A stretch of DNA of 64,000 nt from an uncultured cyanobacterium (GCA_963718615.1 OY970368.1:1696001-1760000), one strand, 5' to 3'. Shown: positions 3,379-25,800, counted from the stretch's first letter. The notes: generated by a model not told the origin, from the letters alone. Numbers and translations are program-made.

Positions 3379-4104
3379 ATGCTGCTGTGGAAAGTTCCTG
3401 GCGAGCCGACTCCTGACATGTATGACGACGAATCATCTTTAATCCCGACGACGGCCAATCCTGAATTGCAGACGGCCCTACGTTGGTGGCAATCTCGCTG
3501 GTCTATGGTTGCGACCCAACAAGCAGAAGGGATTCGAGATGGCCTGTTACAAGAAGTATTCGCACTCAGACGGGAGCTAGAACTTAGCTCACTCGCGACC
3601 ACCCCTCCAGACTCAAACCGTCTCCAGGGCTGGATTCATACACTAGAAGACCTCCATCAACAACTCGATAATTTAGGCGATCAGCTCTCGCCACCCTATC
3701 AAACCGATGATCTGGCTCTTGCAATTCAGGATTTATTGGGGTATTGGCAAAAGAAGCATCCAGTGATCCACGTCAAGATGGGAGTCTTATCTCAAATTAA
3801 GATGAATAATTCTGAGTTCAACCGTGTTGTCTTATTCGCCATAGAGCAGCTATTGCTTTTAATCGTGCGCATTGAAGATGTGATCATGATACGGATTGAG
3901 TTGGTTGCAAAAAGCACGGATCTTGTGCTAAGTGTAATTGTGAACCGAAGCAGGTCAAAATCCCCACTCCCTGAGTCAGTCTTGGCTGAGCTGGGATGCT
4001 TGCAAGAGGTGTTGCCAATCTTGACCTGTGGACGGTTGATCTCCCGGCCAGGAGCCCAAGGCGTCAGCTATGAATTTTGTTGGGCCAACCTAGAGCCATA
4101 CTGA
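3379..4104 (+). CDS. Degenerate histidine-kinase-like protein (HisKA_3-like helix, no phospho-His)
   Basis: AEGIRDGLLQEVFALRR occupies the H-box position, followed by a remnant ATPase-like C-terminus; first gene of the regulator-CHASE2 operon. Confidence 0.65.
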   Translation: MLLWKVPGEPTPDMYDDESSLIPTTANPELQTALRWWQSRWSMVATQQAEGIRDGLLQEVFALRRELELSSLATTPPDSNRLQGWIHTLEDLHQQLDNLGDQLSPPYQTDDLALAIQDLLGYWQKKHPVIHVKMGVLSQIKMNNSEFNRVVLFAIEQLLLLIVRIEDVIMIRIELVAKSTDLVLSVIVNRSRSKSPLPESVLAELGCLQEVLPILTCGRLISRPGAQGVSYEFCWANLEPY

Positions 4105-4145
4105 GGCCTACTGCAAAATCTCCTCCATCTATATCATAAAAAAAT

Positions 4146-4847
4146 ATGAATTCTCCTCGAAAAAGAACGTTTATTGTCGTTGATGATCATGAATCAGTAC
4201 TAAAGGGAACGATCGCTATTTTACAAACATACTACCCTGATGCTGAACTTCTAGAGGCACAACATGGTCAGCATGCACAAGAACTTGTACAAAGTCTACG
4301 ACCTGACTTAGTGTTAAGTGACCTTTCCATTCCTCTCAATTTTGGAACTGAGGCTCAACTGGAAAATGGCTTGAATTTCTTACGTTGGTTGATGGAAAAC
4401 TATCCAACGATTAACATTCTAGTGCAAAGCGCCCATGTCAGAACATTAGTTAGACTTAAATCGGCGATCGCTTCTCACCAAGGTGGTTTTGCCGTTGCAG
4501 ACAAAAGCTTACCCCTCAAAGATATGATGAGGCGTGTTGATTTGGTGCTGGATGGAGGGAGTTTTACACCTCCAGAAATCCGTTCTGGTATTGAAATTAA
4601 GTCCGAATGGCTAAAGGTTTTAACATTGGCTTTTCAAGAGGGTCTACAGGATAAGGCGATCGCGATCAGAATGAATGTAGCGGAACGAACCGTACGCCAC
4701 TACTGGACTAAAATTCAAGATGTTTTAGAAGTCTATCCTGCTGAGAAAGATGCAACGAAAGAAAAAGATCAAATACAAGAAAAAGATCTAAAAAATATTC
4801 GAATTCAAACTGAACTCAGAGCCCGCGAAGAAGGCTTGATTGATTAA
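4146..4847 (+). CDS. NarL/LuxR-type response regulator
   Basis: Receiver domain IVVDDHE...LVLSDLSIP; helix-turn-helix GLQDKAIAIRMNVAERTVRHYWTKI. Confidence 0.9.
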   Translation: MNSPRKRTFIVVDDHESVLKGTIAILQTYYPDAELLEAQHGQHAQELVQSLRPDLVLSDLSIPLNFGTEAQLENGLNFLRWLMENYPTINILVQSAHVRTLVRLKSAIASHQGGFAVADKSLPLKDMMRRVDLVLDGGSFTPPEIRSGIEIKSEWLKVLTLAFQEGLQDKAIAIRMNVAERTVRHYWTKIQDVLEVYPAEKDATKEKDQIQEKDLKNIRIQTELRAREEGLID

Positions 4848-4867
4848 GAAGAATTCATTGACGAAGA

Positions 4868-6829
4868 TTGATATCTTGTGGTCAAGATAGGTTGAGGAGA
4901 ATAAGTCTGATGCGCTACCCGCAAGAGTCAAATCTATCAGCATTTCAGGGCAGGACTTTAGGGCTGATTCCAGGGGTCATGGCTATTTTAGCCGTTGCTG
5001 GGTTTCGATTGTTTGGAGGGCTACAACCATTAGAATGGAAGGCGTTGGATGTCTTGATGCGGTTACGGCCAACTGAAATCCGTGATGAGCGCATTACCAT
5101 TGTGGCGATCGACGAGACGGATATTGTTGAGCAGCTTAAGACATATCCCATTTCGGATGACCAATTGACAGCTCTTTTGAAGGCGATCGCATCCTACCGA
5201 CCTCGGGTGATTGGACTCGATATCTTTCGTGATTTACCCGTTGAACCAGGCCATGCTCAACTCACTCAGGTCTTTAAGCAAACCCCAAATATCATTGGCA
5301 TTGAACGCATTCTTTCACCCCCTGTAACAGGTCCTCCCTCCCTTCCCCAAGAGCAGATTGGATTTGCTGATGCCTTACTCGATGAGGATGGGTTTCTGCG
5401 CCGTAGCCTCCTTGGGGTATCTCATCTTAAGCAAGAGTACCGACTTTCGTTCACCATTCAAGTCGCCCAACATTATCTCAAATCTAAGGAGATTAGCCTG
5501 GAGAATGGCCTGCGAGATTCAGAGGCAATGCGGTTCGGAAATGTAGAACTGCATCGCTTCCGGCCAAATACGGGTGGATATGTCAATGCAGATTCGGAAG
5601 GGAATCAAATCTTAGTCAATGTCCGCAGTGGCAAGCAACCCTTTCGACGGGTCTCTCTAGGTCAGGTGATGGCGGGCAAGGTACAGCCAGAATGGCTCAA
5701 GGATCGTATTGTTCTTGTTGGGGTTGTGGCTCCTAGTGCTAAAGATTTTGTCAATTCTGGAGCCATTCAAAGCAGTAATTCAGGACTCATACCGGGGATC
5801 GAATTTCAAGCCCATGCAATTAGCCAATTAACGAGCGCAGTCCTGGACAAGCGACCGCTATTGCATTCCTTTCCAGATGTTTGGGAGTATCTGGCGATTG
5901 TGCTAGGAGGGGTGTTGGGGCTCGGATTTGTAAAGTGGAGGCGATCGCCCCTTCAGCAGCTTATTAATATAACTTTAGGCCTTTTAGGCTGCATAGGAAT
6001 TAGCTATATTTTCTTATGTTTTGGACTCTGGCTTCCGATTATTCCAGTGGGATTAGTTTTTTTATTGAATGGAACCATAGCCTATAGTTTTTATCTGTAT
6101 GAGCAGGGGATTCGTGCGCAGATTCGAGAGCGTCAAACCCTGATTGAACAGGTCTTTGGAGCAATTCACAATGGTCCTCTACAGTCGTTAGGCTCGATTC
6201 AGCGGCAGTTAGATGAGACAGACTGGTTACCTCAGGATTTTAAACGGGAAATAGCATCGGTAGATGATACTTTGCGAAAAATTTATGAAGATCTTCGTCA
6301 AAAAACTGTATCTCAGGGGACAAGTGTTTATTTAACTCGTAATTCTGGAGGTGATATCAATCTACTGCTCCACGAGCTGCTAGAAGAAATTTATTTTAAG
6401 ACGATGGAACGTAACTTTCCCTGTTTTAAATCCATTAAGATAAAAATCAAGGATTTAGGACCCTTGGCTGAGGAGAATCTGAGTCTTACCCACAAACAGG
6501 CGATCGCACATTGGTTTGAAGAAGCATTATGCAATGTTGGCAAATACGCAACTAATACCACCAGACTGACTGTAACGAGCCAGCAATGCGATGGGTACAA
6601 CATCATCCAAGTCATCGATAATGGAATGGGACTGCACGCAATTCAGGAGCCAAGGAGATTAAAATCGCTAGGGGGCTATGGAACAAAGCAAGCAGAGCAG
6701 CTAGCGTTCCAGCTTGGGGGTAAGTTTCAACGATGTTCAGCGAAGCCCAAGGGAACCCACTGTGAGCTTCGTTGGCCGATTCGGCCATCATTCTGGGTGA
6801 GACTTGGCCGTTTTCTGTCAGGGGCATAA
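4868..6829 (+). CDS. CHASE2-domain membrane sensor histidine kinase (start may be 4910)
   Basis: CHASE2 motifs ITIVAIDETDI, PRVIGLDIFRD, DGFLRR and PGIEFQAH; three TM segments; H-box IHNGPLQ, N-box EEALCNVGKYA, G-box IDNGMG. Confidence 0.9.
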   Translation: MISCGQDRLRRISLMRYPQESNLSAFQGRTLGLIPGVMAILAVAGFRLFGGLQPLEWKALDVLMRLRPTEIRDERITIVAIDETDIVEQLKTYPISDDQLTALLKAIASYRPRVIGLDIFRDLPVEPGHAQLTQVFKQTPNIIGIERILSPPVTGPPSLPQEQIGFADALLDEDGFLRRSLLGVSHLKQEYRLSFTIQVAQHYLKSKEISLENGLRDSEAMRFGNVELHRFRPNTGGYVNADSEGNQILVNVRSGKQPFRRVSLGQVMAGKVQPEWLKDRIVLVGVVAPSAKDFVNSGAIQSSNSGLIPGIEFQAHAISQLTSAVLDKRPLLHSFPDVWEYLAIVLGGVLGLGFVKWRRSPLQQLINITLGLLGCIGISYIFLCFGLWLPIIPVGLVFLLNGTIAYSFYLYEQGIRAQIRERQTLIEQVFGAIHNGPLQSLGSIQRQLDETDWLPQDFKREIASVDDTLRKIYEDLRQKTVSQGTSVYLTRNSGGDINLLLHELLEEIYFKTMERNFPCFKSIKIKIKDLGPLAEENLSLTHKQAIAHWFEEALCNVGKYATNTTRLTVTSQQCDGYNIIQVIDNGMGLHAIQEPRRLKSLGGYGTKQAEQLAFQLGGKFQRCSAKPKGTHCELRWPIRPSFWVRLGRFLSGA

Positions 6830-7003
6830 CCAAATTTGGGCTCAGAGACGGCTAGTTTGAGCCTGAGGCTTGGTCAGGGAGGGAGGTGTAATATCCGGAG
6901 CGAGCTTCTAGGGTAGAGGAGTAGAAATTATGATGACAAGCATATTCAACTCAGGTTCTGTGTATTCGTATCTCGCAAGATGAGTTTTTAGAGGACTGTT
7001 CCA

Positions 7004-7708
7004 ATGATGCGGTGGACAAGGACGTCGGCTTCCCTTTTGTTAATCTCAGGTCTGTGGGCAGTTCTAGCGGCTCCCGGATGGGCTGGGTATAAGCCTCCTC
7101 GACAGGCCTCTCGCCCAAAGTCGCCCAGTACCACGACGGGAACGCGGGGCTGTTCCAGTCAATCGACAGCAATGTTGATGGCGATCGCCCCTCAACAACA
7201 TGTTGGACAAACCACTTCGGTCTATCCGACATTTGTCTGGTTTATGCCGGATGAAAAGCCGTATTTGATGGAATTCGAGCTGTATGAATTGACGACGACG
7301 GGCCGTAAGAACCTGATGCGTCAGTCTATGCAAAGTCAGTTTGGTTTGATGCAGCTAACGTTACCCAAGGATCAGGCGGCGCTTGTGCCTGGAAAGCAGT
7401 ATCTATGGCAGGCGATCGCCTATTGCAACAAGAATCGACCTTCTAGTGCCCTTGTGGCAAAGGCGGAGCTAACGGTTCAAAAGCCTGAAGCTGGATTAAC
7501 GAACATCCTGGCGGTAACGACGGATCCCCTAACTCGTGCTGAGCAATACGCCGAAGCAGGGTTTTGGTATGACGCGATGCGAGAGGCAATGCAAGATCAA
7601 GGATCTAAAGGTAAAGCAATGCAGAATGCATTGTTGCAGGATTTGATCCAATTTCAAGAATCAAAATCACAGCCTAATCTGAAACAAGTTCTCTTGCTTC
7701 TTAAGTAG
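7004..7708 (+). CDS. DUF928 exported protein
   Basis: Signal peptide; motifs TTGTRGC, GQTTSVYPTFVWFMP, GKQYLWQ and YAEAGFWYDA. Confidence 0.85.
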   Translation: MMRWTRTSASLLLISGLWAVLAAPGWAGYKPPRQASRPKSPSTTTGTRGCSSQSTAMLMAIAPQQHVGQTTSVYPTFVWFMPDEKPYLMEFELYELTTTGRKNLMRQSMQSQFGLMQLTLPKDQAALVPGKQYLWQAIAYCNKNRPSSALVAKAELTVQKPEAGLTNILAVTTDPLTRAEQYAEAGFWYDAMREAMQDQGSKGKAMQNALLQDLIQFQESKSQPNLKQVLLLLK

Positions 7709-7790: not shown

Positions 7791-7909
7791 CTATGGCATT
7801 TATTTCCCAGACGACTTTGTCTCTATGCTTGATTTTTCGAGCTAACCAGTTGGCTTTGCTGTTTTCTGCAATTCATATCGCTGAAAATAATATTTTTGCT
7901 TCTACTTTT

Positions 7910-7958
7910 CGGACAAGAATACTATCTCCACCTCGTTTATCTTAAGGATATCGAAAGA
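7910..7958 (+). promoter_or_regulatory. Putative activator-dependent promoter, shared with 13546-13594
   Basis: CGGACA-N22-TATCTT-N4-ATATCGAAAGA; ungapped match to the region upstream of the DUF3747 gene. Confidence 0.5.
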
Positions 7959-8029: not shown

Positions 8030-9037
8030 ATGAAAACCACAATTCTTACTAAAGTCATGAACATCAAAAAAACTTCCTCTGGTATTGCTTCTGCGCTTGT
8101 AATTTTCAGTAGTGGTATCGGCCTCAGCGTTGTCGCGGCGATCGTTCCTTCTCTAAACTCTCCTGTCCAAGCTCAGACAGCAGGGCAGCCTGTCAGTACT
8201 CTACGCGGCTGTTTTCTCAATGTATCTTTCACGGGGAAGATCGCCTTTAACCCTACAAATATTCGCCAACAACCGAGTACCGGTTCATCGATTGTTGGGA
8301 AATTTACACAAGTGGGACAAGCCGTTAGCTTTTCTGGTATCACAACGGGAAATCCTGTCGCAGATGCTTGGGATGGTCAGCAAGACAACATGTGGTATCG
8401 ACTGGCAGATGGGCGCGGCTGGGTTGCTAGTGCAGTGGTGAGTGGCTATCCGCCTCGCGCCAATTGTATTATTGGTTTGCCCAAGACTACTGATCAAGCA
8501 AATAAATTTTTCAAGATGCAGTTTCGCGATGCAAACTATAATCCGACGGGACCGCTTTCCAGCGCAAATTGTGGCCCTGCAAGTCTAGCTATGGCTTTAG
8601 CCGCTCTAGGTCGTGAACCTTCTGGCCTCAATATTCAACAGAGCATTGATCGCGCAAGTGATTTGATGGGGAGAAATAGAAATGCAAGTTTCTCCAGTTG
8701 GGCACAACTCCAAACTGGTGTTAGAAAAGCAGGAGGAACTCCAGTTGACATTGGAAGTTGGTCCGCCTTAGATCAGTCTCTTTCTCAAGGTAAGCCTGTG
8801 ATTTTAAATGGTTTCTATGCTCAGAACTGGCGGAATCAATTTCCAGCACGCACGGGAAGTGGTACTGTTGCACATCTCAATGCAGTGCTCGGAAAAACAT
8901 CAGATGGTCGGTATATCATAGCTGACCCCATGCACACCGGTGGAACGGTCGCAATGAACCAAGCGCAACTTTCGGTTTTCTTTAGATTAAGTGGTCAAAA
9001 TGGTAATCCTTGGGGAATTGCAGTAACGGGCTTATAA
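8030..9037 (+). CDS. Secreted SH3b + C39-like cysteine peptidase
   Basis: Signal peptide ending VQA; SH3-like NIRQQPST...WYRLADGRGWVASA; NCGPASLAM (Cys), AHLNAVLG (His), IADP (Asp). Confidence 0.8.
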   Translation: MKTTILTKVMNIKKTSSGIASALVIFSSGIGLSVVAAIVPSLNSPVQAQTAGQPVSTLRGCFLNVSFTGKIAFNPTNIRQQPSTGSSIVGKFTQVGQAVSFSGITTGNPVADAWDGQQDNMWYRLADGRGWVASAVVSGYPPRANCIIGLPKTTDQANKFFKMQFRDANYNPTGPLSSANCGPASLAMALAALGREPSGLNIQQSIDRASDLMGRNRNASFSSWAQLQTGVRKAGGTPVDIGSWSALDQSLSQGKPVILNGFYAQNWRNQFPARTGSGTVAHLNAVLGKTSDGRYIIADPMHTGGTVAMNQAQLSVFFRLSGQNGNPWGIAVTGL

Positions 9038-9133
9038 GCTTTAATCTTCACAGCTATCCGTTAAAGATTACAATCGTACTGAGATAATCTCTTACGATTG
9101 TATCTTTCCCATTCTTTATCCACTAATAAAAAA

Positions 9134-9523
9134 ATGAGAATCAATCAATCCTTCGAAAAAGAGTTAGCTGTTGCAACAATTTCTATTCTCATTCATGGTG
9201 CTTTTATTCCAGTTGCATTGAGTGCCTCAGTAACTACGATTGCAGGAGCAGTGTCTGCTGAGTCGCAAAATGTCCCAGCCTGTTATGTGAAGTTAGCAAA
9301 TGGTGAAATTCGAGATTTGACTAAATTCTGTGGCTTTATCAAGCCTCAAAGCTGCTCAGGTTCACTCGGTTCAGCAAGTCGCGATCTCGTTCTCCCAGAC
9401 TTTTGCAAACAACATAACCGCTGTGTTTTGACCAAAACCTGCAAAGAGACTCCACGGGGAATCTATACCCCACCTCCAGGTACCCCCATGGGTGTCATTC
9501 TTTCCAAATATATCTCTGCTTAA
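9134..9523 (+). CDS. Small exported Cys-rich protein
   Basis: Hydrophobic N-terminus; CYVKLANGEIRDLTKFCG motif plus four further Cys. Confidence 0.65.
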   Translation: MRINQSFEKELAVATISILIHGAFIPVALSASVTTIAGAVSAESQNVPACYVKLANGEIRDLTKFCGFIKPQSCSGSLGSASRDLVLPDFCKQHNRCVLTKTCKETPRGIYTPPPGTPMGVILSKYISA

Positions 9524-9649: not shown

Positions 9650-11479
9650 CCCGGATATCTCACCAGTGCCGAGGGATCGGGGTCACCAACCAGCGAGAAT
9701 GTAATAACCACAAGACATTCAGCGGTTTGCAAAGATGGCCCCGACCCAAACAGAGTGTAACTTGCCAAGCTACGAGTTTGGACGCCTGAATCAACGCAAG
9801 ATAGTAGCGAACTTTAGCGGTGGTGAGCTCAGCAGTGATGGAGGGCTGCTGCTAATTCGAGAAATCGACCAGCTATATCGAATCAGTGAGCGGCTGTCCG
9901 AGTGCTTTACGGATCACCGCGATGGCAGCCGGGTGCAACATGAATTGAAAACGCTGCTCGGGCAACGGCTTTATGGATTGGTGCAAGGCTACGAGGACGT
10001 GAATGACCATGACGACCTTCGGCATGAGCGATTATTTGGGGTAGTTCTGGGTCAGTTAGAAAGCCAGCATCCGCGCTGTGCACCGTTAGCGGGCAAGAGC
10101 ACCCTCAACCGATTGGAGCAAGCGATGCATGTCCCCCGCGACTTGTCAGATTCGCGCTACGTGAAACTGAGCCTGGACCCGGCTGCCATCGAGGCGCTCT
10201 TGGTGGAGCTATTCATCGAACAACTCGAAGGTGAACCGAAACAAATCATCCTGGACATGGATGTCACCGATGACCCCACCCATGGCACCCAGGAAGGTTC
10301 AGCGTTCAATGGGTATTACCGCCATGACTGCTACACCCCGTTGCTCATCTTCAGTGGTCGCCATTTGTTGAGTGCAAAACTGCGACCGGCCAATGTGGAC
10401 CCCGCAGCGGGAGCGTTAGAAGAACTCCAACGCATCGTGGCTCAGATTCGAGGTCATTGGCCGAAGGTGAAGATTCTGGTGCGCGGCGATAGTGCTTACA
10501 GCCGAGATGACATCATGCTGTGGTGTGAAGGTGAAGCCCAGGTGGACTTTGTTTTTGCCCACAGCAGCAATGAGCGCTTGCGCCAATTGACTTGGGGGTT
10601 AGAACAGCGAGCCAAAGCCGTTTATGAGGCCCAGCGCCAAACGGTTGCTGCCACCTTAGAACCTCTGTTAGAGCAGAGTGCAAGTGAACTAGAGGCTGAA
10701 CTCAACCGCTTGGTTCCGCCCCAGGTTTGGCATCAGTCCTTGAGCTATGCCACGCTTAAATCCTGGAGCTGTGAGCGTCGCGTCATTTGCAAGCTCACCT
10801 ACGATGGCAATGGCCCACGTCGCCATTTCGTTGTCACCTCTTTGACAGCACAGCAGGCCCATCCCGCTCACCTTCACCGCGATTATTACTGTCCGCGAGG
10901 AGAGATGGAAAATCGCATCAAGGAGCATCAGCTTGACCTCTTCAGCGACCGCACCTCCACCCATGACTTTGAAAGCAATCAGCTCAGACTCTGGTTTTCA
11001 TCCTTCGCCTATGTCTTGATGCAGGCCCTGCGCCTCAAGGCACTCGCCAAAACTGAACTCGCTGATGCGACTCTGGGCACCATTCGACGCAAGCTGCTCA
11101 AGCTTGGCGCACAGGTTCGCATCTCTGTCAGGCGCATTCTCGTCGCATTCACTTTCGCTTCGCCCATACAAACCCTCTTTGAAGCGGCAGCACAACAGTT
11201 GCGCAGACGACTCCCTAGGCCAGGATAGACCGATGAGTAGAACTCTAGCCTTTCGCTCCGACTTTAATTCAACGACTCTCCAAGGGTGAGATTACACACC
11301 CTTGCTTTGACCTGCTCAAAATCTGCCTGAAGCCCCATATCTAGAGCACAATGACTACCTTTACAGCATAGACAGCCTGAAAGATGCCTCAGGCATCCTC
11401 TATTGCTCGAGTCAACAGACTGCTCATCTCATTTCGGGCAAGCCTGATACTCTCTATCCGCCCTGGTGAGAAATCCGGG
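9650..11479 (+). mobile_element. IS1380-family insertion sequence, 1830 bp
   Basis: 17-bp terminal inverted repeats CCCGGATATCTCACCAG (9650-9666) and CTGGTGAGAAATCCGGG (11463-11479), one mismatch; 5-bp target duplication CTTAA at 9645-9649 and 11480-11484. Confidence 0.93.
9735..11228 (+). CDS. IS1380-family DDE transposase
   Basis: Motifs FSGGELSSDGGLLL, IILDMDVTDD, VRGDSAY, YCPRGEMENRIKE and SNQLRLWFS. Confidence 0.95.
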   Translation: MAPTQTECNLPSYEFGRLNQRKIVANFSGGELSSDGGLLLIREIDQLYRISERLSECFTDHRDGSRVQHELKTLLGQRLYGLVQGYEDVNDHDDLRHERLFGVVLGQLESQHPRCAPLAGKSTLNRLEQAMHVPRDLSDSRYVKLSLDPAAIEALLVELFIEQLEGEPKQIILDMDVTDDPTHGTQEGSAFNGYYRHDCYTPLLIFSGRHLLSAKLRPANVDPAAGALEELQRIVAQIRGHWPKVKILVRGDSAYSRDDIMLWCEGEAQVDFVFAHSSNERLRQLTWGLEQRAKAVYEAQRQTVAATLEPLLEQSASELEAELNRLVPPQVWHQSLSYATLKSWSCERRVICKLTYDGNGPRRHFVVTSLTAQQAHPAHLHRDYYCPRGEMENRIKEHQLDLFSDRTSTHDFESNQLRLWFSSFAYVLMQALRLKALAKTELADATLGTIRRKLLKLGAQVRISVRRILVAFTFASPIQTLFEAAAQQLRRRLPRPG

Positions 11480-16758: not shown

Positions 16759-17112
16759 GCTACCAACTTAAGCTGCCGATAGGCATTCTCCTTCGCCAAT
16801 CTGACCAAATGCTTCAGCCAGAAATAGCGATCCAGCTCCGTTTGCTCATCTTGCGACAAATCCCGCTGCTTCTTCGCCGCCAACAGCTCAGATATCCGTG
16901 ACTGTAACTCTGACGAGGGTCGAGTCGCCAAAATCGTCTTGGGGTCAGGTTGACTTGCCAGCAGGTAGATAATATCCGCCTCCCTATGAAACAGACTGAC
17001 AGCCTCTGACTTCACCTCCAACAAACCCCGCTCCAAGATTTACGGGAGCCTCGCGGCGTGTGGCTTGAGCTGTTCTGCCAAGAATTCAGGGATATCGATA
17101 GTGACTTGTGTG
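16755..17112 (-). pseudogene. Antitoxin-like partner of the HNH gene with a premature stop
   Basis: TQVTIDIPEFLAEQLKPHAARLP*ILERGL... with TAA at 17042-17040, then RPSSELQSRISELL...EQTELDRY..LKHLVRLAK. Confidence 0.6.
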
Positions 17113-17237
17113 GTTAAGGGGGTGACGATCGCTCCTCAATATCCACCAACCCCACATTCAAAACCCACTCCCGCTTGAACCACAAAGCCTCAACCATTGC
17201 CCGCGCCACTGCCACACCTGTTACTGCTCAACCTCTC

Positions 17238-17873
17238 TCAAAAATCCTCATCCTCATCAACTGGTTCAAACACTTGCTGAGACAACTTATCCCACAATGC
17301 AATCATCTCCGATGTTGCCTGCGCAACCTCTAGTCGCTCCGTCACCAACGCTGGATTTTCCTGAAACTGCGGAAACGTCAACAACAGCATCACAATATCT
17401 CGCCAATCCGTACCCGCTTTCGGTTTCCCCCGCCGCCGATGATAGGCCATCACCTTGTAAGCCAACAGCTCCACCGGAGCCATCACCAAAACCTGCGCAA
17501 TCCGCTCCGACATCGGCAAGGCTTCAACCGCTCTGATATCTACCAAGTGGCGATTGCCCACCTTCTGAATCTGATAAACCCGATAGCCTAGCTTCGTTTT
17601 CACCTCCCGTACCCGCACTGCAATCTGAAATTTCTCATTCAGATGGGCACGGATCTCCTCCGCCAAATCACCCGCTTCCAAAGCTAAAAGATCAATATCC
17701 TGCGTCATTCGAGGCTCATTTACCCAAGCATTCACCGCTTGAGCTCCGAAAATGACGACATCGTTGCGATCGCGCAAAAACTCCAGCACCGCCTCCTGAA
17801 TCATCGCCAGAGGCACTTGCTCACCCATTGCAAACTCCCGAAAGCTTAAAACGCCAGCATTAACCATAAACAC
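17238..17873 (-). CDS. Nucleotidyltransferase-fold (AbiEii/AbiGii-like) protein
   Basis: IFGAQAV...PRMTQDIDLL (G...DxD motif), ELLAYKV and KAGTDWRDI. Confidence 0.7.
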   Translation of the reverse strand: MFMVNAGVLSFREFAMGEQVPLAMIQEAVLEFLRDRNDVVIFGAQAVNAWVNEPRMTQDIDLLALEAGDLAEEIRAHLNEKFQIAVRVREVKTKLGYRVYQIQKVGNRHLVDIRAVEALPMSERIAQVLVMAPVELLAYKVMAYHRRRGKPKAGTDWRDIVMLLLTFPQFQENPALVTERLEVAQATSEMIALWDKLSQQVFEPVDEDEDF

Positions 17874-17971: not shown

Positions 17972-20900
17972 TTAAATCGAACAAGTAGCTTGAGGCGGTA
18001 TCACGGATCGCCCAGCAACAAGCCTAACCCTACCATCTGGCGTGATTTGAATCTGCTGGGCTTCCAGACTAGAGGGAGCAGAGGCCATGGAGGGTGCGTG
18101 CGGGGGAGAGGAATGCTGGGCAATGTCGAGATCGAAACTATGAATATCCCCAGTCGTGTAAGGAATATTTGCTGGGTTGCCAGGGCGAACCGGTAGACCC
18201 CCTCGCCCGCTGGTTTGAAAAGAACCATTGCTTTGTTTTCCAGTGGTTTGAGCCGCGCAACGGCGATCGAGTCGTTCTGCCCCGCTGATAGGGGTAGTGG
18301 GCAGTTCTGCAAGGCCATTACTGGGATCTACATTGGGGGTATTGAGGCTGACATTGCCCTGAGCACCGCTTTCTGAACTCGCAGTGATATCGCTTTGGGA
18401 GGTCAGCTTAGGGCGAAACTCCAGGCCAAGAATGCCCTGGGAAAAAACATCTACTTTGCCGCCATTACCGGCCACTGCATTGGCCGTGATGTCACTACTT
18501 TCCTTAGGAACCGCAATGATAAAACCGTTCGTGTTATCAATTCTAATATCCCCTCCATTGCCACCTTGTCTTGCATTGGTTTCGATACGGCTGCCATCAC
18601 GAAGTATCAGGAAACCGTTGAGGTTATTGATGGTAATGTCACCGCCATCGCTTTCTCCTGCATTGGTTGCAATGCTACTCTTGTCGCGAAGGAGCAAGAG
18701 TTGAGCAATGTCCAGGTTGATATCGCCACCTTCGGCGCTGGTGGTGCTGGCGCTGAATTGGCTATTGTTAAGGCTCAGATTCCGGGCAGAAACGTTGATG
18801 TCTCCCCCTTGGCCACTCCTATTGCTTTCAACCGTGATGATGGCATGATCGAGGTTAATGTTCTCGCTGCTGAGGGCAATGCCACCCGCTTTACCGCTGC
18901 CGTTGGATTGGGCTGTAAGGCTAGCATTGCTGAGGTTAATTTGATCTGGTACCTTAATTCTTAAGGTACCGCCAATTCCAGATCCACTGGTAGAAGTAGA
19001 GATTTTTCCCTCATCTTGAATGTTCATCCGTTGAGCTTCAATGAGAACGTTGCCTGCACTCCCACTATCTTTTGCCTGAGCAAAGAAACCGCTAAAGGGG
19101 CCATCTACATCGACTTGTTCACTTCTGACTTGACGAATACGTTGCTCGAATTGGCTATCGAAACCTGAAATTTCTATTTCTCTAGCATCAATCACAATTG
19201 AGCCTGCTTGACCAGCACCTTCTGAAGTTGTGAGGATTTGCCCTCCACGGCTCAGGTTGATCTGTTCAGATTGAATATCAATTTTGCCTCCATCAGATGC
19301 ACTGAGGGTTCTAGAGCTTAAAGCCCCTCCATCAGAAATACTAAGAACTTTCGATTTTAAGACTATATTTCCTCCATCACCCGAGGAAGCTTGCCTGCTT
19401 CCTGAAAATAAACCGCTGGATATTCCACGAGATGCACTTCCGAATGTGAAGCGATCATTTGGAATATTACTAGTTCCTGAAATATCGACAATATTAGCCT
19501 CTATGCTAATGTCGCCAGCTTTTGCGTCTCCAGGACGAATTTCTCCAATTTCTTCAGGTGATAGGCCCTGACTTAATAAGCCTGCAACATAGTGTCTCTC
19601 AAAAGCTCTGAGATCATTTTCTGGGTCAAAGGATTCGATCTTATAAATTGCAACTTCATCAATACTGCCTTTAAAAGGTTGTGGATATTGTGGATGTTCC
19701 CAAGAACCAATGACAACGGTGGGTGGTTGCCCCTCAAAGGGTCCTTTTGTGCCCACCGCAGCCTCTAAACCATCAATTTCCAGTCGAGTGGTTTGCCTTG
19801 TTGCTCCAGGAGGACGACTGTGAATAACCTTTGCCACGACATGATGCCATTGATTATCAAAGGGCAACACACCGATGGGGGTGTCTAAATCATCTCCCCA
19901 CAAGCCAAGCCGAACTGCTCCATTGTCATTTAAGCGAAGATGAAAACTTGTTCTAGTCTGACTAGCATCATGTGCACCGAAGAAAACCTGCTCCTTGGGA
20001 GGGTTATTCGGATCAGGCTTGATCCAAGCCTCGACAATAAAGGATGTGTTTTTTAGGTCGAAATCATCATCTACTCTAACAACACCATAAGAATCACCAA
20101 ATCTGGCTGATGTACCGGAAATCCCTAGAGCAGATTGATCAATATTGCCAACATATTTACCCTCAAAATTTGCGCCTGAGCTATTAGGAGCAATGGTTCC
20201 AGTTGTTTCGTCAAACTTCCAATATGCGATCGGTCTATCACGATTAACAATGTCAAAATATATTTTATCTTGCATTGTTTCTGCCAGTTTTCTAAAGGTT
20301 ATTCCTTCTGTTTGTGTTTCAATTCTACCACCAGAAGCCAAAGTAAGCTGAGAAGTCCTTAAACTAATGTTCCCACCATTGCCCGTATTTTTCCTAGAAC
20401 CACTGTAAATAATACTATCTCCAAGAACAGAGATTTGCCTAGTTGAATTGATCTTAATATCACCAGCATTTCCCGTCCCTGTTGTATCAGTATTGATTTG
20501 AGCTTGATTATTCAATTTGATTGCTTGAGTATCAATAAAGATTGATCCGCCATTGACTGAAGACTGAGTAGAAGAGGTAATTTTACCGGAATCTAAATTG
20601 ATTTGACGAGCATAGATTTCTATATCTTTTGCCTCTCCTGAGGAACTTGGTCCTGCACCGTTAAGAATCCACCCATAATATTCAACCGTGAGTGTATCTC
20701 TAGCCGTTAAAGATATTTTTCCACCACCCGTTAAGCCAATCGAGCCAGCTTGAATACGCCCTTCCCCATCTTTTACTGTAATGTTTCTAGCATTTACTGT
20801 AATATTACCCGCACTTTCTCCGGGAGCTGTTCTTGCATCTTGTCTAGCGTCAGTGAATAGTCCAGCAGTGACTCTACCCGGTGCATCAATCAATAAATCT

Positions 20901-23005
20901 TCTTTTAAGTTGATAATAATTCCGTTGTTTCCACCTTTGCTATTCACCCGTGAAGTCATCGTTGAATTGATCATTGAGAGGGAGTTTGCAGCAATTGAAA
21001 TTGTTCCTGCTTCCCCTTTTTGAGAACTCCCATTGCTATCAATTCTGGATCCATTTTTCATTTCCATATGACCAGTCAACTGCACAATGACATTACCCGC
21101 ATTGCCCCTACCCAAAGAACTTGTATTAAGTCCAGCAGTAGAACTAGTGTTGATGAGATGCCTATCGATCGTTAACGTATCCGCAACAACTAAAATATCT
21201 CCTGCCCTCCCTTCACCATTCTCCCGCAACCGAGACCAAAGCTGGGTTCCACCTAAGAGCTTAATATCTCTGGCTCGCAGCGTAATTGAGCCTGCATCTC
21301 CTTTGCCTTTAGAATCTGCGTAAAAATCAGTGAAATTGTCAGCTTTCAATTGGTCTGCAACAATCAGCATATTGCCGGATCTGCCCAATCCATTCGTATC
21401 CAGTTCTAAAATTAATTCAACATCATCCAGCAATACAGAAGGGGCTTTCATCGTGATGTCCCCTGCACGACCAAACTTGGCTGTGGTGTCAACCCTTAAG
21501 AATAAAGCAGCGTCGTCTTTTCCCTCTTGCCCCGGTGGATGGGGACTGCTCAGGTTGATGGCTTGGCCTGCGAGGAGCGTGATATTGCCACCATTCCCCG
21601 CTGCGGGTAGCGCTGAGGTGTTGATTTGGCTGCGGGGGGCGATCGCAATACTCCCCCTCGCATCGATCGCCACCTCCCCCCCATTCCCCACAAAATTAGC
21701 CGTTGTCTGCCCGACATTCCCCGTGCGCTGATCCGTAAAAATCCCCTGCGCCCTGATATCCCCCGCCGCCAAGGTCAAATTCGGCTGATACTGATTCGTC
21801 AACAACACCAACCCATTAGGAGCCTTCACCTCCACCCGCCCCAACTGAATATTGCTCCCCGTCGCACCCGAAACCGTCGGGGCATTGTTAAATCCAGCGC
21901 CTCCACCCTGGCTCAAGGGCCTCGCCGTCGTCCCCGCCCGAATATCCAACACCGGACGATTCACCCCATCCACAGACACCGCCGTTCCATCGGACAACAC
22001 TACCGTCTCCTGCAACGCATTCCCCGATATGTCTGGCCCAGTAATCGTGATTTTCCCGGTGGCGGTCACACTACCCCCAGCGAAAAGATGCAACGACGCT
22101 CCGGTGTAACTATCAAACTGAATATCCCCCGCCGCCTGGATTATCGGATCCTCGGGACTCCAAAAGCTGTTTAGACTTCCATCGAGTTGTTCAATGCGGA
22201 AATTGCCACCACTGCGGACATGGGCGTCCGCTTGGATGGGGTTGGGCGATCGCAACACAACGTCTCCCCCAGCACTCAAGAGACTTTCCGAATGACTGAG
22301 CGTGTCGATCGCCACCTCCCCGCCTTCAATCACCAAATCCTTGCCCGCCTCCAACCGCACCGCCTGCTGCGCCGAATCTTGCACCCGCACCCCCGACTGC
22401 GCTGCCAATCTCAGCTCTCCCCCCACCTGTAACAACCCTTGGGTTTGAATCTGCCCCAACGACCCCGCCCCATACTGCAAACCCGGTGTCAAATTGATCT
22501 GAAGCAACGGCGCGGCCTGCGGATTCACCGCACTAAAACTCAATCCCTCACCAAACTCAACTCGCTCCGCAGTTGTGCCAACAAAACTGCCAGAAATATC
22601 CAATTGTGCATTCGGACCAAACAAAATGCCATGCGGATTCAACAGAAAGAGATCCGCCGTTCCTCGTACCCCCAACGTCCCCAAAATATCCGATCGATTC
22701 CCCCCCGTCACCCGCGCAAAAATCGTCTCAATCGACGAATTCGGCATCAGAAAATAAGCCGAGCGCCCCTCGGCCACTCCAAACTCCGAAAAACTATGAA
22801 ACAGATTGGGGGCACGCACCACCCCACCGCCAATCTCATCCACCGACCCCCAGGGCATCAGCTCAGACCCACCCGCCCCCAAGGTTGCATCGGGCACAAT
22901 CACGGGTTGCGCAACCGCATCACTCCCCGCCAGCACCATCATCGCCCCAGCCAAACTATTCACCAGACAAACAGACAAAATCCGTTGCATGAGCTTACTC
23001 CTCAA
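17972..23005 (-). CDS. TpsA / filamentous haemagglutinin-family beta-helical protein with an internal LamG domain
   Basis: Signal peptide; TPS motifs NLFHSFSEF, RVTGG, LLNPHGILFG; GxGGxI repeats; LamG AYWKFDE...VEAWIK...WHHV...GSIDEVAIY; C-terminal SDITASS...GRGGLP. Confidence 0.9.
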   Translation of the reverse strand: MRSKLMQRILSVCLVNSLAGAMMVLAGSDAVAQPVIVPDATLGAGGSELMPWGSVDEIGGGVVRAPNLFHSFSEFGVAEGRSAYFLMPNSSIETIFARVTGGNRSDILGTLGVRGTADLFLLNPHGILFGPNAQLDISGSFVGTTAERVEFGEGLSFSAVNPQAAPLLQINLTPGLQYGAGSLGQIQTQGLLQVGGELRLAAQSGVRVQDSAQQAVRLEAGKDLVIEGGEVAIDTLSHSESLLSAGGDVVLRSPNPIQADAHVRSGGNFRIEQLDGSLNSFWSPEDPIIQAAGDIQFDSYTGASLHLFAGGSVTATGKITITGPDISGNALQETVVLSDGTAVSVDGVNRPVLDIRAGTTARPLSQGGGAGFNNAPTVSGATGSNIQLGRVEVKAPNGLVLLTNQYQPNLTLAAGDIRAQGIFTDQRTGNVGQTTANFVGNGGEVAIDARGSIAIAPRSQINTSALPAAGNGGNITLLAGQAINLSSPHPPGQEGKDDAALFLRVDTTAKFGRAGDITMKAPSVLLDDVELILELDTNGLGRSGNMLIVADQLKADNFTDFYADSKGKGDAGSITLRARDIKLLGGTQLWSRLRENGEGRAGDILVVADTLTIDRHLINTSSTAGLNTSSLGRGNAGNVIVQLTGHMEMKNGSRIDSNGSSQKGEAGTISIAANSLSMINSTMTSRVNSKGGNNGIIINLKEDLLIDAPGRVTAGLFTDARQDARTAPGESAGNITVNARNITVKDGEGRIQAGSIGLTGGGKISLTARDTLTVEYYGWILNGAGPSSSGEAKDIEIYARQINLDSGKITSSTQSSVNGGSIFIDTQAIKLNNQAQINTDTTGTGNAGDIKINSTRQISVLGDSIIYSGSRKNTGNGGNISLRTSQLTLASGGRIETQTEGITFRKLAETMQDKIYFDIVNRDRPIAYWKFDETTGTIAPNSSGANFEGKYVGNIDQSALGISGTSARFGDSYGVVRVDDDFDLKNTSFIVEAWIKPDPNNPPKEQVFFGAHDASQTRTSFHLRLNDNGAVRLGLWGDDLDTPIGVLPFDNQWHHVVAKVIHSRPPGATRQTTRLEIDGLEAAVGTKGPFEGQPPTVVIGSWEHPQYPQPFKGSIDEVAIYKIESFDPENDLRAFERHYVAGLLSQGLSPEEIGEIRPGDAKAGDISIEANIVDISGTSNIPNDRFTFGSASRGISSGLFSGSRQASSGDGGNIVLKSKVLSISDGGALSSRTLSASDGGKIDIQSEQINLSRGGQILTTSEGAGQAGSIVIDAREIEISGFDSQFEQRIRQVRSEQVDVDGPFSGFFAQAKDSGSAGNVLIEAQRMNIQDEGKISTSTSGSGIGGTLRIKVPDQINLSNASLTAQSNGSGKAGGIALSSENINLDHAIITVESNRSGQGGDINVSARNLSLNNSQFSASTTSAEGGDINLDIAQLLLLRDKSSIATNAGESDGGDITINNLNGFLILRDGSRIETNARQGGNGGDIRIDNTNGFIIAVPKESSDITANAVAGNGGKVDVFSQGILGLEFRPKLTSQSDITASSESGAQGNVSLNTPNVDPSNGLAELPTTPISGAERLDRRCAAQTTGKQSNGSFQTSGRGGLPVRPGNPANIPYTTGDIHSFDLDIAQHSSPPHAPSMASAPSSLEAQQIQITPDGRVRLVAGRSVIPPQATCSI

Positions 23006-23067
23006 TTTAATGTTCTAACACCACCACAACCAACATCCAATCCCCAGAACGACTACCCAGAAATCAA

Positions 23068-25800
23068 CTACAGCCAATTGCCAATCAAAATCAACGGAGC
23101 CCAACGCGCTGGATGGGCCATCTCTCCACCCTGACGAATTAACGCCACTTGCGCCGCCTGCAAAGCCTGCGCCCGATTCAACTCTGGCTTCAGCAACCCG
23201 CCATAAAACCGCTCTACAATCTCTGCTGTTGCGGCATCATTAATGGACCAGAGAGAGGCCACAGCACTTCTGGCCCCAGCGCGAATCGCTACTCCCGCAA
23301 GCCCTAGCGTGGCCCGTTCATCTCCGATCGCCGTCTCACAGGCCGTCAGCGCCAGCAACTCAATCGGCTCCGTCGTCGGAGCGGCCCGTCGAATCAACCC
23401 ATCCAGTTCCTGAATGGTGATTTTGTTCTGATCCCCTGTCACAATAAAATTGTTCTCCGGTTCTGCCCCGAACTTTCCGTGGGTTGCAATATGGAGGATG
23501 GGATAGTACTTTTGGGCTAATGCCCGCTCTAAACGCGATCGACTAAACTCCTGATTCAGTAACGTTTGTGTTTCCGGCAGTTGCTCAGCCACCGCCATCA
23601 ATTCCTGAGCCACATGGGGCAATGGATCAAACAACTCAGTCCCCACCATGCTCTCCTCTGTTAACCCTAATGCTAGGGCAGAAAGCCCTGCCTTCAAGGG
23701 GTGAGGATCCGTAAGCTGCAAGCTAGGTGTCACCGCAATGGCGTAGTGTTCGATCAAAAAAACTTGACCATCATGCAGTGCTGCCATCGGCACCGTTCGA
23801 AAAATCCCATCATGAACAAACACCAGGGTTTGGGTTTCGCTCTTTTGTAATTGGAACTCAAAAGGTCGAATTAACCAGTGATAGATTTCTTGAGCCCCCT
23901 CAGGCTCAAAATCCCGAAAATAAGATTCTAAGCCGCGCCGAAACTCACTCACTTTCGCGCGTAACTGGACACTGTCCAACTCAATCCAGGCCACTTGAGT
24001 TTGCCCGTCAGGGAAGCTCGCAATCACCGCTGTGCGATCCGGAAAAATAATCGTATTGATAACCGCTGCGCGATCGCGACTGTTCTGGATCTCGGTCACT
24101 GCTAGATTTGGAGTCAGGTCACAATCGCCACCCAAGTAATTTTGCAACTCGGCTACCTTGAGGGAATCTATCGTTTTGAGCACAGCCATGACTGGCTTTT
24201 GGTTTGGCTTTTCACGAATTTGAGTGCCTCGACTTGGCTGGGATCGCAATTGCTTTAATGGCAGATCTTTCGTAGAACTCAACGATTGCATGGGTTGACC
24301 GAGGGGAGCGATCGACGCTAGCTGCAAAGCAGCTAGATCTCGATAAATGGGTTCGATAGTTTCTCGAAAGTCAAACTGAATCTCTGGATCGGTCGCCAGC
24401 AAATCACTCCGAATTGCATCCAGTGCAGCCACGGCCTCTTGATAGAACGCGATCGCCAGATCTCCCTTGCCCTGAGCCTTAAGAATTCGGCCCATCTGCC
24501 AATTCAAAAGATAAAGACTATCCAGGCTATCTGGCACAGCCATCATGGATTGAAGGGATGCTTGAGTTAGCTTTAACGCTTGTTTAGAGTTTCCTTGACA
24601 TTCGGCGAGATGCCCCAATTCACCTTTAACAAAAGCGATCGCTCGTTGATCTTGAAGCTTTTGAGCAATGGGTAAGGCTTGTTTCTCCAAGAGCAATGTG
24701 GCCTCTGTGATTCTTCCCGCTCCCAGGCACCGCGATGGAACTCGTCCCTCGGATATCATCGAAAGGTCAAGCGATCGCGCCAGATGAATCAAACCCAAAA
24801 CTTTACCTTGCGAAGGAGGAAGCTGTGGAAGCAATCGATGAGCCGCATGGTGCGTTGTCTGGGCCTGCGAGAAATTTTCCTGCTTGGCATAAATAGCAGC
24901 CAAGTGCAGTAGTATGCCAAATTCTTCAAGCACATGAGCAGAGGAATGCTCGGACTGTTGTACCAGGGCAAGCGCCTGCTCAAACGCAAACTGAGCCTGC
25001 TGATATTGTTCAGTCGCTCGCGCTTGCGGTGCTTTTGCGAACTCCTCATCTCCCATTTCTAAGGCAACCTTAGCGCGCTGGAAATTAACGCGACCAAGAT
25101 CCTCATAAACACTCCCCAATCCGACCCAAAGGGAAAGTTCATGGGGGTGAGCATTCTGGCTTTTGGCAAGTGCCTGGGCTGTTTTCAGCTGCTGAAGAGC
25201 GAATGAATACTCCCCGATCAGTCGATAGGTTTCACCCAGGGTTCCTAACGCGGCAATCTCCGTTGCGACAGAACCACTGCTACGAGCCAAGGCCAAAGCG
25301 CTTTCGGAGCGACAGGACGGATTACCTGCCGGGCCACAGAGCAAGTTGAAGGCACGGCGGTGATGTCCGAGCAGGTTGTAGGCTTGGGCCAGTTCGACCG
25401 ATAGACGGGCTTGTTCGGGGCGATCGCCCAAGGCTTGAGTACTCTGCACAGCCCGCTGCCAATAGTCCACAGCTTGGAAGGATTGCCCAAGTTGCTGAGC
25501 TGTCCTGGCAAGGTTTTCTAAAAGGAGAGCCCGCTCTTTACCATGTTCCTGAGCGGGGAGCACTTCCAAAGCGGCTTGCCAGATGGAAGCGGCAGATGCG
25601 TAATCACCCGCCCGGTAAGCATGCACCCCTTGATGCAGCAAACCCACCTCAAGCCCTGCCTCGGACAGGTATGTTGGCTCCGCTGACCGAGCCACTACTC
25701 TAGTTGCCCAAGGGTTTAACAAAAAACATAGCAGTAAACCCACACACCAAAATGCACCGAATTGTCGCCAACCAGAAGAACAAAAGCGCAATCTCACCAT
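23068..25800 (-). CDS. Exported TPR + CHAT (caspase-like) protease
   Basis: N-terminal hydrophobic signal; TPR helices; LHIATHG (His), LTACETA (Cys), ASLWSIND and HPARWAPLILIGNW. Confidence 0.92.
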   Translation of the reverse strand: MVRLRFCSSGWRQFGAFWCVGLLLCFLLNPWATRVVARSAEPTYLSEAGLEVGLLHQGVHAYRAGDYASAASIWQAALEVLPAQEHGKERALLLENLARTAQQLGQSFQAVDYWQRAVQSTQALGDRPEQARLSVELAQAYNLLGHHRRAFNLLCGPAGNPSCRSESALALARSSGSVATEIAALGTLGETYRLIGEYSFALQQLKTAQALAKSQNAHPHELSLWVGLGSVYEDLGRVNFQRAKVALEMGDEEFAKAPQARATEQYQQAQFAFEQALALVQQSEHSSAHVLEEFGILLHLAAIYAKQENFSQAQTTHHAAHRLLPQLPPSQGKVLGLIHLARSLDLSMISEGRVPSRCLGAGRITEATLLLEKQALPIAQKLQDQRAIAFVKGELGHLAECQGNSKQALKLTQASLQSMMAVPDSLDSLYLLNWQMGRILKAQGKGDLAIAFYQEAVAALDAIRSDLLATDPEIQFDFRETIEPIYRDLAALQLASIAPLGQPMQSLSSTKDLPLKQLRSQPSRGTQIREKPNQKPVMAVLKTIDSLKVAELQNYLGGDCDLTPNLAVTEIQNSRDRAAVINTIIFPDRTAVIASFPDGQTQVAWIELDSVQLRAKVSEFRRGLESYFRDFEPEGAQEIYHWLIRPFEFQLQKSETQTLVFVHDGIFRTVPMAALHDGQVFLIEHYAIAVTPSLQLTDPHPLKAGLSALALGLTEESMVGTELFDPLPHVAQELMAVAEQLPETQTLLNQEFSRSRLERALAQKYYPILHIATHGKFGAEPENNFIVTGDQNKITIQELDGLIRRAAPTTEPIELLALTACETAIGDERATLGLAGVAIRAGARSAVASLWSINDAATAEIVERFYGGLLKPELNRAQALQAAQVALIRQGGEMAHPARWAPLILIGNWL

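Follow-up and report, generated by a model that had tools for sequence, protein, structure and literature searches.

How might a locus in which a CHASE2 sensor histidine kinase, a NarL-type response regulator, a DUF928 protein, a caspase-like TPR-CHAT protease and the two-partner secretion (TPS) exoprotein TpsA stand together with genes for secreted proteins carry a signal across the cell envelope? The question is raised by positions 3379–25800 of a 64,000-nucleotide (64-kb) stretch of DNA from an uncultured cyanobacterium (GCA_963718615.1 OY970368.1:1696001-1760000), the whole of which is here called the window. Repeats of GCGATCGC, which we take to be HIP1, were frequent in the window and, together with the homologues found, are consistent with a cyanobacterium. 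A sequence-only reading of the locus had proposed a protease-gated two-component system enclosing secreted hydrolase and adhesion cargo. The present analysis points to a signalling module that is real and widespread, seems so far undescribed and has an operator predicted here for the first time; a protease gate is plausible for it and has a named candidate site. The interpretation tentatively preferred, at a little short of an even chance, is that of a trans-envelope signalling module which controls secreted surface proteins and is gated by the protease.

The conserved core and its predicted operator

Every open reading frame (ORF) named by the sequence-only reading was found by ORF calling and Pfam/NCBIfam searches with the strand and domains claimed for it. 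The genes of the signalling core and the predicted operator arrays are:

3379–4104, plus strand: HisKA_3-like pseudo-kinase; Arg53 replaces the phospho-acceptor His, N and G boxes absent
4146–4847, plus strand: NarL/LuxR-type response regulator; D13-D14, D59, S95 and K120 intact, recognition helix VAERTVRHYW
4910–6829, plus strand: CHASE2 sensor histidine kinase, HisKA_3/NarX-like, with CHASE2 and HATPase_c domains; H-box His420
6803–6868, plus strand: operator array 1; main site 6803–6822 with weaker repeats; overlaps the kinase gene's end and lies 201 bp upstream of DUF928
7004–7708, plus strand: DUF928; signal peptide, YxPP...GxR(G)C pro-segment (Arg48, Cys50), Ig-like domain and helical TPR-like domain
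7854–7919, plus strand: operator array 2; 176 bp before the SH3-C39 gene, with an extra repeat at 7898 (+44 bp)
13490–13555, plus strand: operator array 3; 177–195 bp before the DUF3747 gene
17972–23005, minus strand: TpsA; TPS domain, beta-helix, LamG insert at amino acids (aa) 973–1122, C-terminal domain of about 110 aa with two Cys
23068–25800, minus strand: putatively exported TPR-CHAT caspase-like protease; His774/Cys821, Asp664/Asp855

The kinase and regulator have the sequence features of a HisKA_3/NarX-like two-component system. In the kinase the H-box reads IHNGPLQ, its His was kept in 120/120 homologues (677 CHASE2 kinase homologues were collected), the N, G1 and G2 boxes are intact and the profile matches the catalytic domain of VraS (E 6e-7); the ORF caller gave a TTG at 4868 as an alternative start. 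In the regulator the receiver residues listed above are accompanied by a LuxR helix-turn-helix domain. The ORF at 3379–4104 had no Pfam or NCBIfam match and lacks the phospho-acceptor His and the ATP-binding boxes of an active histidine kinase. The label of pseudo-kinase given to it earlier holds, since IRDGLLQ stands where the kinase has IHNGPLQ and a protein atlas built on language-model features placed the ORF near HisKA_3 clusters (score 0.95). The H-box position was Arg in 37/39 rows of the pseudo-kinase alignment and His in one, and no N or G boxes were seen in it. The N-terminal hydrophobic segment typical of most pseudo-kinase relatives is absent from the window copy; an out-of-frame hydrophobic Cys/Leu-rich stretch at 3341–3440, which overlaps the start of the gene with a spacing unlike that of the relatives, might be a remnant of it.

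The linkage of these genes was surveyed by scanning a kinase alignment against the GTDB genomes, which gave at least 559 confirmed relatives; the counts refer to the best 80 of these genome loci, kept with up to 10 kb of flank, and a locus was counted only where it had enough flank or a match. The regulator was found in 68/76 related loci and the pseudo-kinase in 61/75, always together with the regulator, while an intact DUF928 was present in 47/70. CHAT directly followed DUF928 in 28/40 loci (20/32 with at least 5 kb of flank), convergently in 26 of the 28, and TpsA or TpsB was found in 13/19 CHAT loci with at least 9 kb of flank. Loci lacking DUF928 had neither the module's type of CHAT (0/23) nor a TPS domain (0/21), counts qualified by L058, which carries a weak, unrelated CHAT protein, and by L033, where the C-terminal part of a TpsA lies at the locus edge. 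Six plasmid loci were also opened for the core genes, and the regulator, kinase, DUF928, CHAT and TpsA were present in 6/6, the pseudo-kinase in three and TpsB in five. The co-occurrence of these families in cyanobacteria, mentioned in the sequence-only reading, is a conserved linkage. The L057 record is labelled as a Hyphomicrobiaceae metagenome-assembled genome; its kinase is sister to a Tolypothrix kinase, and the record is probably a mis-binned contig.

The enclosing layout fared differently. The gap between DUF928 and CHAT was −64 to 928 bp in 28/28 loci, against 15,360 bp in the window, and DUF928 converges directly on TpsA with no cargo between them in L045, L064 and L082. Because this direct convergence occurs elsewhere and the cargo is not conserved, the window is best described as a known arrangement with about 10 kb inserted, and the bracket is incidental. 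Despite the 15-kb gap, the window CHAT belongs by its sequence to the module's CHAT subtype. It groups with CHATs of the same kinase subtype, which were 6 of the top 7 among 84 plasmid records, and a quick tree with a small outgroup placed it in a 97*-supported clade with those plasmid-locus CHATs, separate from five CHATs of other loci.

Motif discovery on the upstream regions of 43 de-duplicated pseudo-kinase genes yielded the consensus TTGCA-N6-TGCAA (log-likelihood 159 against 25 in shuffles), and a matrix retrained without the window sequence scored above 12 bits in 32/43 of these regions. The operator scan, which like the cargo survey covered 86 related loci (1.59 Mb; some closely related) with a site threshold of 14 bits, gave 175 sites compared with 20–27 in shuffled sequence. 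These preceded the pseudo-kinase 47 times (the training class), DUF928 26 times, TpsA 12 times, double-Gly peptides eight times, RTX genes six times, and CHAT and TpsB four times each. Typically a main site is followed by weaker repeats at steps of about 22 bp, the site is oriented towards the gene (68 against 18) and the median distance to the gene is 176 bp. The upstream regions of TpsA or CHAT alone gave no motif clearly above shuffles, those of DUF928 gave a weaker signal, and a scan for sigma-70 promoters and terminators gave a result at or below chance.

Within the window, four sites of at least 14 bits were detected, with a shuffle mean of 0.6 and a maximum of 2. The main sites scored 16.7 bits at 6803, 19.4 at 7854 (its repeat at 7898, 11.0) and 19.6 at 13490, and they are supported at p 0.001, 0.034 and 0.009, respectively, by their secondary repeats, which had not been used in discovery. 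A model of 66 columns ranked arrays 1 (24.1 bits), 3 (23.2) and 2 (20.3) as the top three, the next match scoring 11.1. The site at 9427 was rejected as a chance match, lying inside the gene for the Cys-rich protein in the wrong orientation and with no secondary repeats (p 0.36). As the strict motif in IUPAC (International Union of Pure and Applied Chemistry) code gave 0 matches in the window, its sites are degenerate and a weight matrix was required. Only DUF928, SH3-C39 and DUF3747, among 43 window genes, have a correctly oriented upstream site of at least 14 bits, and since the three best window matches precede these genes, the cargo units of the window probably belong to the predicted regulon.

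A further 37 non-core genes stand behind operators in the related loci. When 30 of them were scanned, extracellular types made up 11 of the 26 that encode at least 150 aa, against 3/60 in a background of 60 of 120 genes drawn (p 6e-5; 4e-4 with duplicates merged); these 11 are of RTX, S8, trypsin or autotransporter types. The box itself shifts with a Thr-to-Met change in the recognition helix of the regulator, C standing at column 15 in 60/65 cases compared with 9/34.

It is proposed that the CHASE2 kinase would phosphorylate the NarL-type regulator, which would then bind the directional TTGCA-N6-TGCAA array. The regulator would switch on DUF928 and usually also the pseudo-kinase, TpsA/TpsB and CHAT as feedback, as well as any secreted cargo that has acquired the operator, here the SH3-C39/Cys-rich and DUF3747/FG-GAP-CHAP units. 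The His-less pseudo-kinase would most likely pair with the kinase as a brake. This output arm, leading from kinase through regulator and operator to secreted cargo with feedback, is considered likely.

A candidate protease gate

The CHAT domain of the protease (PF12770, E 4e-56) has kept His774 and Cys821 in 26/26 rows, so that the dyad described earlier as intact is so, and Asp664 and Asp855 are equally invariant (26/26 rows). Acidic S1 residues are described as a mark of Arg-specific clan CD enzymes (PMC4626109). The N-terminus has about 13 residues, basic in character, followed by a hydrophobic segment at aa 14–30 that is also found in relatives and may be a signal peptide or a membrane anchor. 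The predicted structure (predicted local distance difference test, pLDDT, 82.7) had as top Foldseek matches Csx29 (7x8a, E 2e-13), separase (E 2e-11) and DdvA (8rw5/8rot, E ~1e-12), and sequence searches against solved structures found no relative of CHASE2, DUF928, the pseudo-kinase or the CHAT domain. Shortened CHATs of about 490 aa occur at L053:13223-14683 and L069:12479-13951, where the signal segment is kept, most TPRs are gone and the gene still converges on DUF928.

DUF928, which numbers 6,887 clusters at 50% identity, consists of a signal peptide, the YxPP...GxR(G)C segment, an Ig-like sandwich and a helical domain (model pLDDT 88.7). Arg48 was present in 42/42 locus sequences and in 135/142 covered rows of a wider set, in which C50 was kept in 139/142 and C141 in 147/148, and an extra GxR-YxP unit was seen in 16/121 sequences. 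No longer or fused forms were found among 1,691 candidates, which is weak evidence. Short DUF928 remnants follow the kinase, with no CHAT in the flank, in L020, L021, L030, L036, L049, L083 and L085; these are loci in which the input arm has decayed while kinase and regulator stay. The Anabaena CHAT protease HetF cuts PatU3 after Arg117 (PMC9457339), and by analogy the near-invariant Arg48 behind a low-complexity pro-segment would fit an Arg-specific CHAT such as HetF.

The best fold match of DUF928 was MtxA (4z29; Z 9.0, root-mean-square deviation 4.1, 145 aa), which ranked first among 48,161 chains (the second reached 7.1), at 13% identity and with no sequence-level match. In magnetotactic bacteria mtxA is followed by the gene of a CHASE2 adenylate cyclase (PMC4439547), so that the match is an independent tie of the DUF928 fold to CHASE2, a shared fold showing no function. 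MtxA resembles DUF928 in having a signal peptide and an Ig-like plus TPR-like fold and in its gene lying beside a CHASE2 receptor gene; it differs in an extra N-terminal beta domain and in a partner whose output is a cyclase (PMC4439547). A complex prediction for the CHASE2 domain with DUF928 scored 0.01 (mark 0.32) and is evidence neither way.

The window TpsA has a signal peptide and a TPS domain (PF05860, E 9e-41; TIGR01901), as expected of a type Vb TpsA. The C-terminal domain of about 110 aa with two Cys is conserved among the TpsA proteins of the related loci and fell into unnamed cyanobacterial clusters in the atlas. HMW1 and FhaB serve as models for a periplasmic TpsA C-terminus, and since in addition CHAT occupies the place of this domain in a TpsA-CHAT fusion at 33323–38041, the domain may stay in the periplasm. 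That fusion (TPS-Big_9-CHAT, minus strand) is part of a second locus at 30512–38041, in which an alpha/beta hydrolase, a 183-aa ORF and a 409-aa signal-peptide protein converge on it. The 409-aa protein has a weak DUF928 match (E 5e-4; hhalign probability 9%), GC content is low (35–41%) over 30–35 kb, and this second locus has no operator and no CHASE2 gene.

In the preferred interpretation the periplasmic TPR-CHAT would cut DUF928 after Arg48 and remove its Pro-rich pro-segment. The cut would change how the Ig/TPR body of DUF928 acts on the CHASE2 domain, either by relieving an inhibitor or by unmasking a ligand. This input arm is possible, at somewhat less than an even chance. The protease in turn would be switched on by TpsA, whose conserved two-Cys C-terminal domain would remain in the periplasm and act once the surface filament makes contact with something, a trigger that is regarded as doubtful.

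The main alternative keeps the regulon and dispenses with the gate: CHASE2, with uncut DUF928 as an accessory, would sense a ligand directly, and CHAT would be an output, a periplasmic protease by which TpsA and other secreted cargo are matured, released or cleared. It would account for the operators that precede CHAT/TpsA promoters in several loci, for the fusion of CHAT to the TpsA C-terminus at 33323–38041 and for the 23 loci that have kinase-regulator pairs without DUF928 and CHAT, and it has a precedent in Bordetella FhaB, a TpsA whose prodomain is processed in the periplasm. This explanation is nonetheless thought rather unlikely, because CHAT adjoins DUF928, as counted above, more regularly than TpsA, because CHAT is kept in Nostocales loci showing DUF928 and no TpsA (L028, L053, L065, L069 and L081), and because no Arg of the TpsA C-terminus is as constant as Arg48 of DUF928.

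A second alternative retains the same wiring as a defence or envelope-damage alarm, with TPR-CHAT triggered by a phage, a predator or a damage-derived protein instead of TpsA, along the lines suggested for DdvA, and with secreted hydrolases and adhesins as the response. DdvA and Csx29 being top fold matches, and two cell-wall hydrolase domains being present in the window cargo, speak in its favour, as does the report that DdvA, the periplasmic TPR-CHAT protein of Myxococcus proposed to start trans-envelope signalling through DdvA-DdvS, controls a defence island (PMC11506125). The genes behind operators are of adhesin, RTX, protease and double-Gly peptide types, with no anti-phage family among them by Pfam (PADLOC was not run). 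For the related Anabaena alr5147/alr5148 cluster a biofilm role like that of EbfG has been suggested (PMC12267927); by its layout this cluster probably corresponds to the PCAT clade seen here. The alarm is considered improbable. DdvA shares with the window protease the TPR-CHAT architecture and a His-Cys dyad, is periplasmic as that protease is predicted to be, and differs in being a membrane anti-sigma factor that may cleave itself and free an extracytoplasmic function sigma factor for phage defence (PMC11506125). The window TPR-CHAT is instead a separate, putatively exported protein, with a CHASE2 kinase as proposed receptor, a NarL regulator, and DUF928 and TpsA as candidate partners; with only about 13 residues ahead of its hydrophobic segment it lacks a cytoplasmic zinc anti-sigma domain, and no sigma gene lies in 3379–25800.

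Several observations weigh against the preferred gated module, and the first group concerns its output. Sec-signal calls, which were crude, were not enriched behind operators (11/37 compared with 160/511), and the covariation of helix and box amounts to one clade-level change confounded with AT content. No operator precedes the window pseudo-kinase (best 2.6 bits) or the CHAT-TpsA operon, and operators also occur in loci with no regulator in the stretch examined (e.g., L027, L064, L070, L075 and L076). On the input side, the co-loss of DUF928 and CHAT on the kinase tree was not significant, with six independent pairs, four to five in the same direction and none opposite (p 0.06–0.125). No CHAT was found nearby in 12/32 DUF928 loci with at least 5 kb of flank, and the 23 kinase-regulator loci mentioned above persist without DUF928. 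No TpsB was detected in the 64-kb window by a hidden Markov model built from 11 relatives or by Pfam on 44 ORFs, in agreement with the sequence-only reading; TpsB was present in 8/80 genome loci and 5/6 plasmid loci. An Arg cleavage motif common to TpsA and DUF928 was rejected, as the Arg of GRGG in the window TpsA is not conserved, the sequence being mostly GSGG. AlphaFold models DUF928 residues 31–40 at a pLDDT of about 90, so that Arg48 could be a structural or binding residue, and Csx29-type CHATs are stated not to cleave after Arg (PMC11506125).

Cargo genes and the ownership of the predicted operator

The genes between DUF928 and TpsA, together with the hairpin and islet found there, are:

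8030–9037, plus strand: SH3_3 and Peptidase_C39_2 protein, cargo (Pfam); NCGP, His and ADP motifs present
9098–9523, plus strand: small secreted Cys-rich protein, cargo; database form starts at 9134, seven proteins found including itself
9735–11228, plus strand: IS1380-family transposase (NF033539, 371.7 bits), between the Cys-rich and GspE genes and outside the system
11384–13093, plus strand: orphan GspE/PilB-like ATPase (T2SSE), a cargo module gene; Walker A/B, His box and Zn-binding Cys motifs present
13436–13476: perfect 17-bp hairpin, just before operator array 3
13667–14302, plus strand: DUF3747 protein with signal peptide, cargo; probable start 13685
14373–16391, plus strand: FG-GAP and CHAP protein, cargo; N-terminal EEFGH zincin-like region, six 48-aa FG-GAP repeats (144-bp period), CHAP amidase with GNCTW, GHVA and SESNW
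16456–17873, minus strand: islet downstream of TpsA; AbiEii-like nucleotidyltransferase at 17238–17873, a 93-aa ORF and a short remnant which we take to be HNH-like

The earlier gene list had overlooked the transposase and the minus-strand AbiEii-like islet, the latter probably unrelated to the signalling system. Its description of the cargo as secreted stands for SH3-C39, the Cys-rich protein and DUF3747, which have signal or secreted features, and not for FG-GAP-CHAP and GspE, in which no signal-like segment was seen. In the 86 related loci tblastn gave no match for SH3-C39, the Cys-rich protein, GspE, DUF3747 or AbiEii, while IS1380 was matched in one and the FG-GAP repeats in two. A CHAP-SH3, Cys-rich protein and GspE trio lies on a Pseudanabaena plasmid (L092:8724-11650) next to CRISPR-cas genes, and no CHASE2, TPS or CHAT gene is annotated within 10 kb of it; the SH3 part of the window protein is 34% identical to the CHAP-SH3 protein, the Cys-rich protein 38% and GspE 60%. 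The SH3-hydrolase, Cys-rich protein and orphan GspE are a three-gene module in their own right, in which the SH3-C39 protein is a probable cell-wall amidase and from which, in the window, IS1380 now separates GspE from operator array 2. The idea that the system regulates its cargo is supported by the operators before the SH3-C39 and DUF3747 units, and that of a fixed, bracketed cargo is not, as the families are absent from nearly all of the 86 loci.

The operator might instead belong to an unlinked transcription factor, such as a global regulator of secretion or biofilm formation, with the local regulator acting elsewhere. The sites in loci without a regulator in the stretch examined and the missing site of the window pseudo-kinase operon would agree with this, operator binding being a prediction only. 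There were 0 sites, against 12.8 expected, in 116.6 kb of four plasmid DUF928-CHAT loci without the module's regulator, two of which are annotated with sigma-70 or DUF1822 instead; the window has only three sites in 64 kb, all within the locus, and the box bases shift with the recognition helix. An unlinked factor is held to be quite improbable. That the 10 kb between DUF928 and TpsA are a chance insertion island unrelated to signalling (a mobile SH3/Cys/GspE module, IS1380 and the AbiEii islet) is very unlikely: the scarcity of the cargo families elsewhere, the plasmid module without CHASE2 or TPS, the cargo-free DUF928-TpsA convergence and the lack of operators at the IS and AbiEii genes suit it, but both cargo units have oriented arrays at 176–195 bp, close to the median elsewhere, the window count of sites far exceeds its shuffles, and the plasmid copy of the module has no operator (best 5.9 bits), so that the explanation holds for the IS and AbiEii parts only.

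Outside the locus, a clostripain-family peptidase (C11, clan CD) lies just upstream at 912–2249; it was unmatched in the 86 related loci and lacks an operator. An HSDR_N gene at 38467–39123 is flanked by a duplication of about 130 bp (38307–38439 and 39124–39257; 88–94% identical), which suggests an inserted cassette. A sigma-70 region 4 protein followed by DUF1822 stands alone at 55682–58240; the same pair accompanies CHASE2-DUF928-CHAT-TpsA in L089, and DUF1822 is also present in L088.

Known systems and the meaning of the module

In Escherichia coli CpxP-DegP-CpxAR, a histidine kinase is gated by a periplasmic accessory protein, which the regulator induces and a protease removes. Its folds are unrelated, and it works by bulk degradation through a serine protease and not by a single caspase-like cut. 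Csx29 of the type III-E Craspase and separase share the TPR-CHAT architecture and allosteric activation; they are cytoplasmic or nuclear, are activated by Cas7-11/RNA or by securin release, and are 10–14% identical. No Cas7-11, Csx30 or other CRISPR gene was found among the 44 ORFs and no CRISPR array among the repeats surveyed at 1–40000. HetF is, with its PatU3 substrate, likewise a cyanobacterial CHAT cutting one partner after an Arg. It differs in being membrane-bound, with TPRs described as periplasmic, and in having a substrate by which cell division and heterocysts are controlled; neither CHASE2 nor a kinase nor TpsA figures in the part of that paper drawn on (PMC9457339). In Sinorhizobium the outer-membrane protein NsrA senses a protein signal and activates the CHASE2 receptors CyaD1, CyaD2 and CyaK, which drive a regulon in a system that also includes Clr (PMC13001267). 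This resembles the proposed route from outer-membrane sensing through CHASE2 receptors to a regulon, the differences being a beta-barrel receptor and a cyclic AMP output, with no protease, DUF928 or TpsA described in the same part of that paper.

A further likeness is to the Synechococcus EbfG-PteB system and the Anabaena asr5139-alr5148 double-Gly cluster (PMC12267927). Related loci also carry secreted cargo of other kinds. In one Nostocales clade, which makes up 31/80 loci (e.g., L020, L021 and L081), a C39-ABC transporter, HlyD and several double-Gly peptide genes precede the pseudo-kinase, regulator and kinase operon; several of the peptide genes have an operator in front, and the operon may encode what regulates the EbfG-like cluster treated in PMC12267927. 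The window has no such transporter, and the part of that paper drawn on makes no connection between the cluster and a CHASE2 kinase or the operator. No description of the whole system was found in PubMed Central open papers or bioRxiv, in line with the sequence-only reading, which knew of no described mechanism; a preprint on slr1753 makes no mention of CHAT; subscription journals and supplementary neighbourhood tables could mention the cluster. In the same sources no publication was evidently on a TTGCA-N6-TGCAA box in cyanobacteria, and DUF928 had, in the text drawn on, a passing mention beside a CHASE2 gene.

A broader reading, put forward with more doubt than confidence, is that of a widespread class in which a TpsA antenna would act on an exported CHAT through a C-terminal domain kept in the periplasm, CHAT would make a single Arg cut in the DUF928 pro-protein, and this would act on CHASE2 receptors with interchangeable outputs, histidine kinase and NarL here and sigma-70/DUF1822 elsewhere; genomes would recruit their own secreted adhesins, hydrolases and peptides through the operator. 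Abundant as they are, CHASE2 receptors, exported TPR-CHAT proteases and DUF928 have been given no signal or substrate in any of the papers found. The present work names DUF928 as a candidate substrate and its Arg48 as the site, proposes an operator for the regulator and lists regulated genes, which makes three open questions directly testable. The protease gate, if true, would be a periplasmic caspase-like cascade feeding a two-component system. The operator by itself would open a way to study the control that filamentous cyanobacteria exert over adhesins, secreted proteases and the double-Gly peptides tied to biofilm formation.

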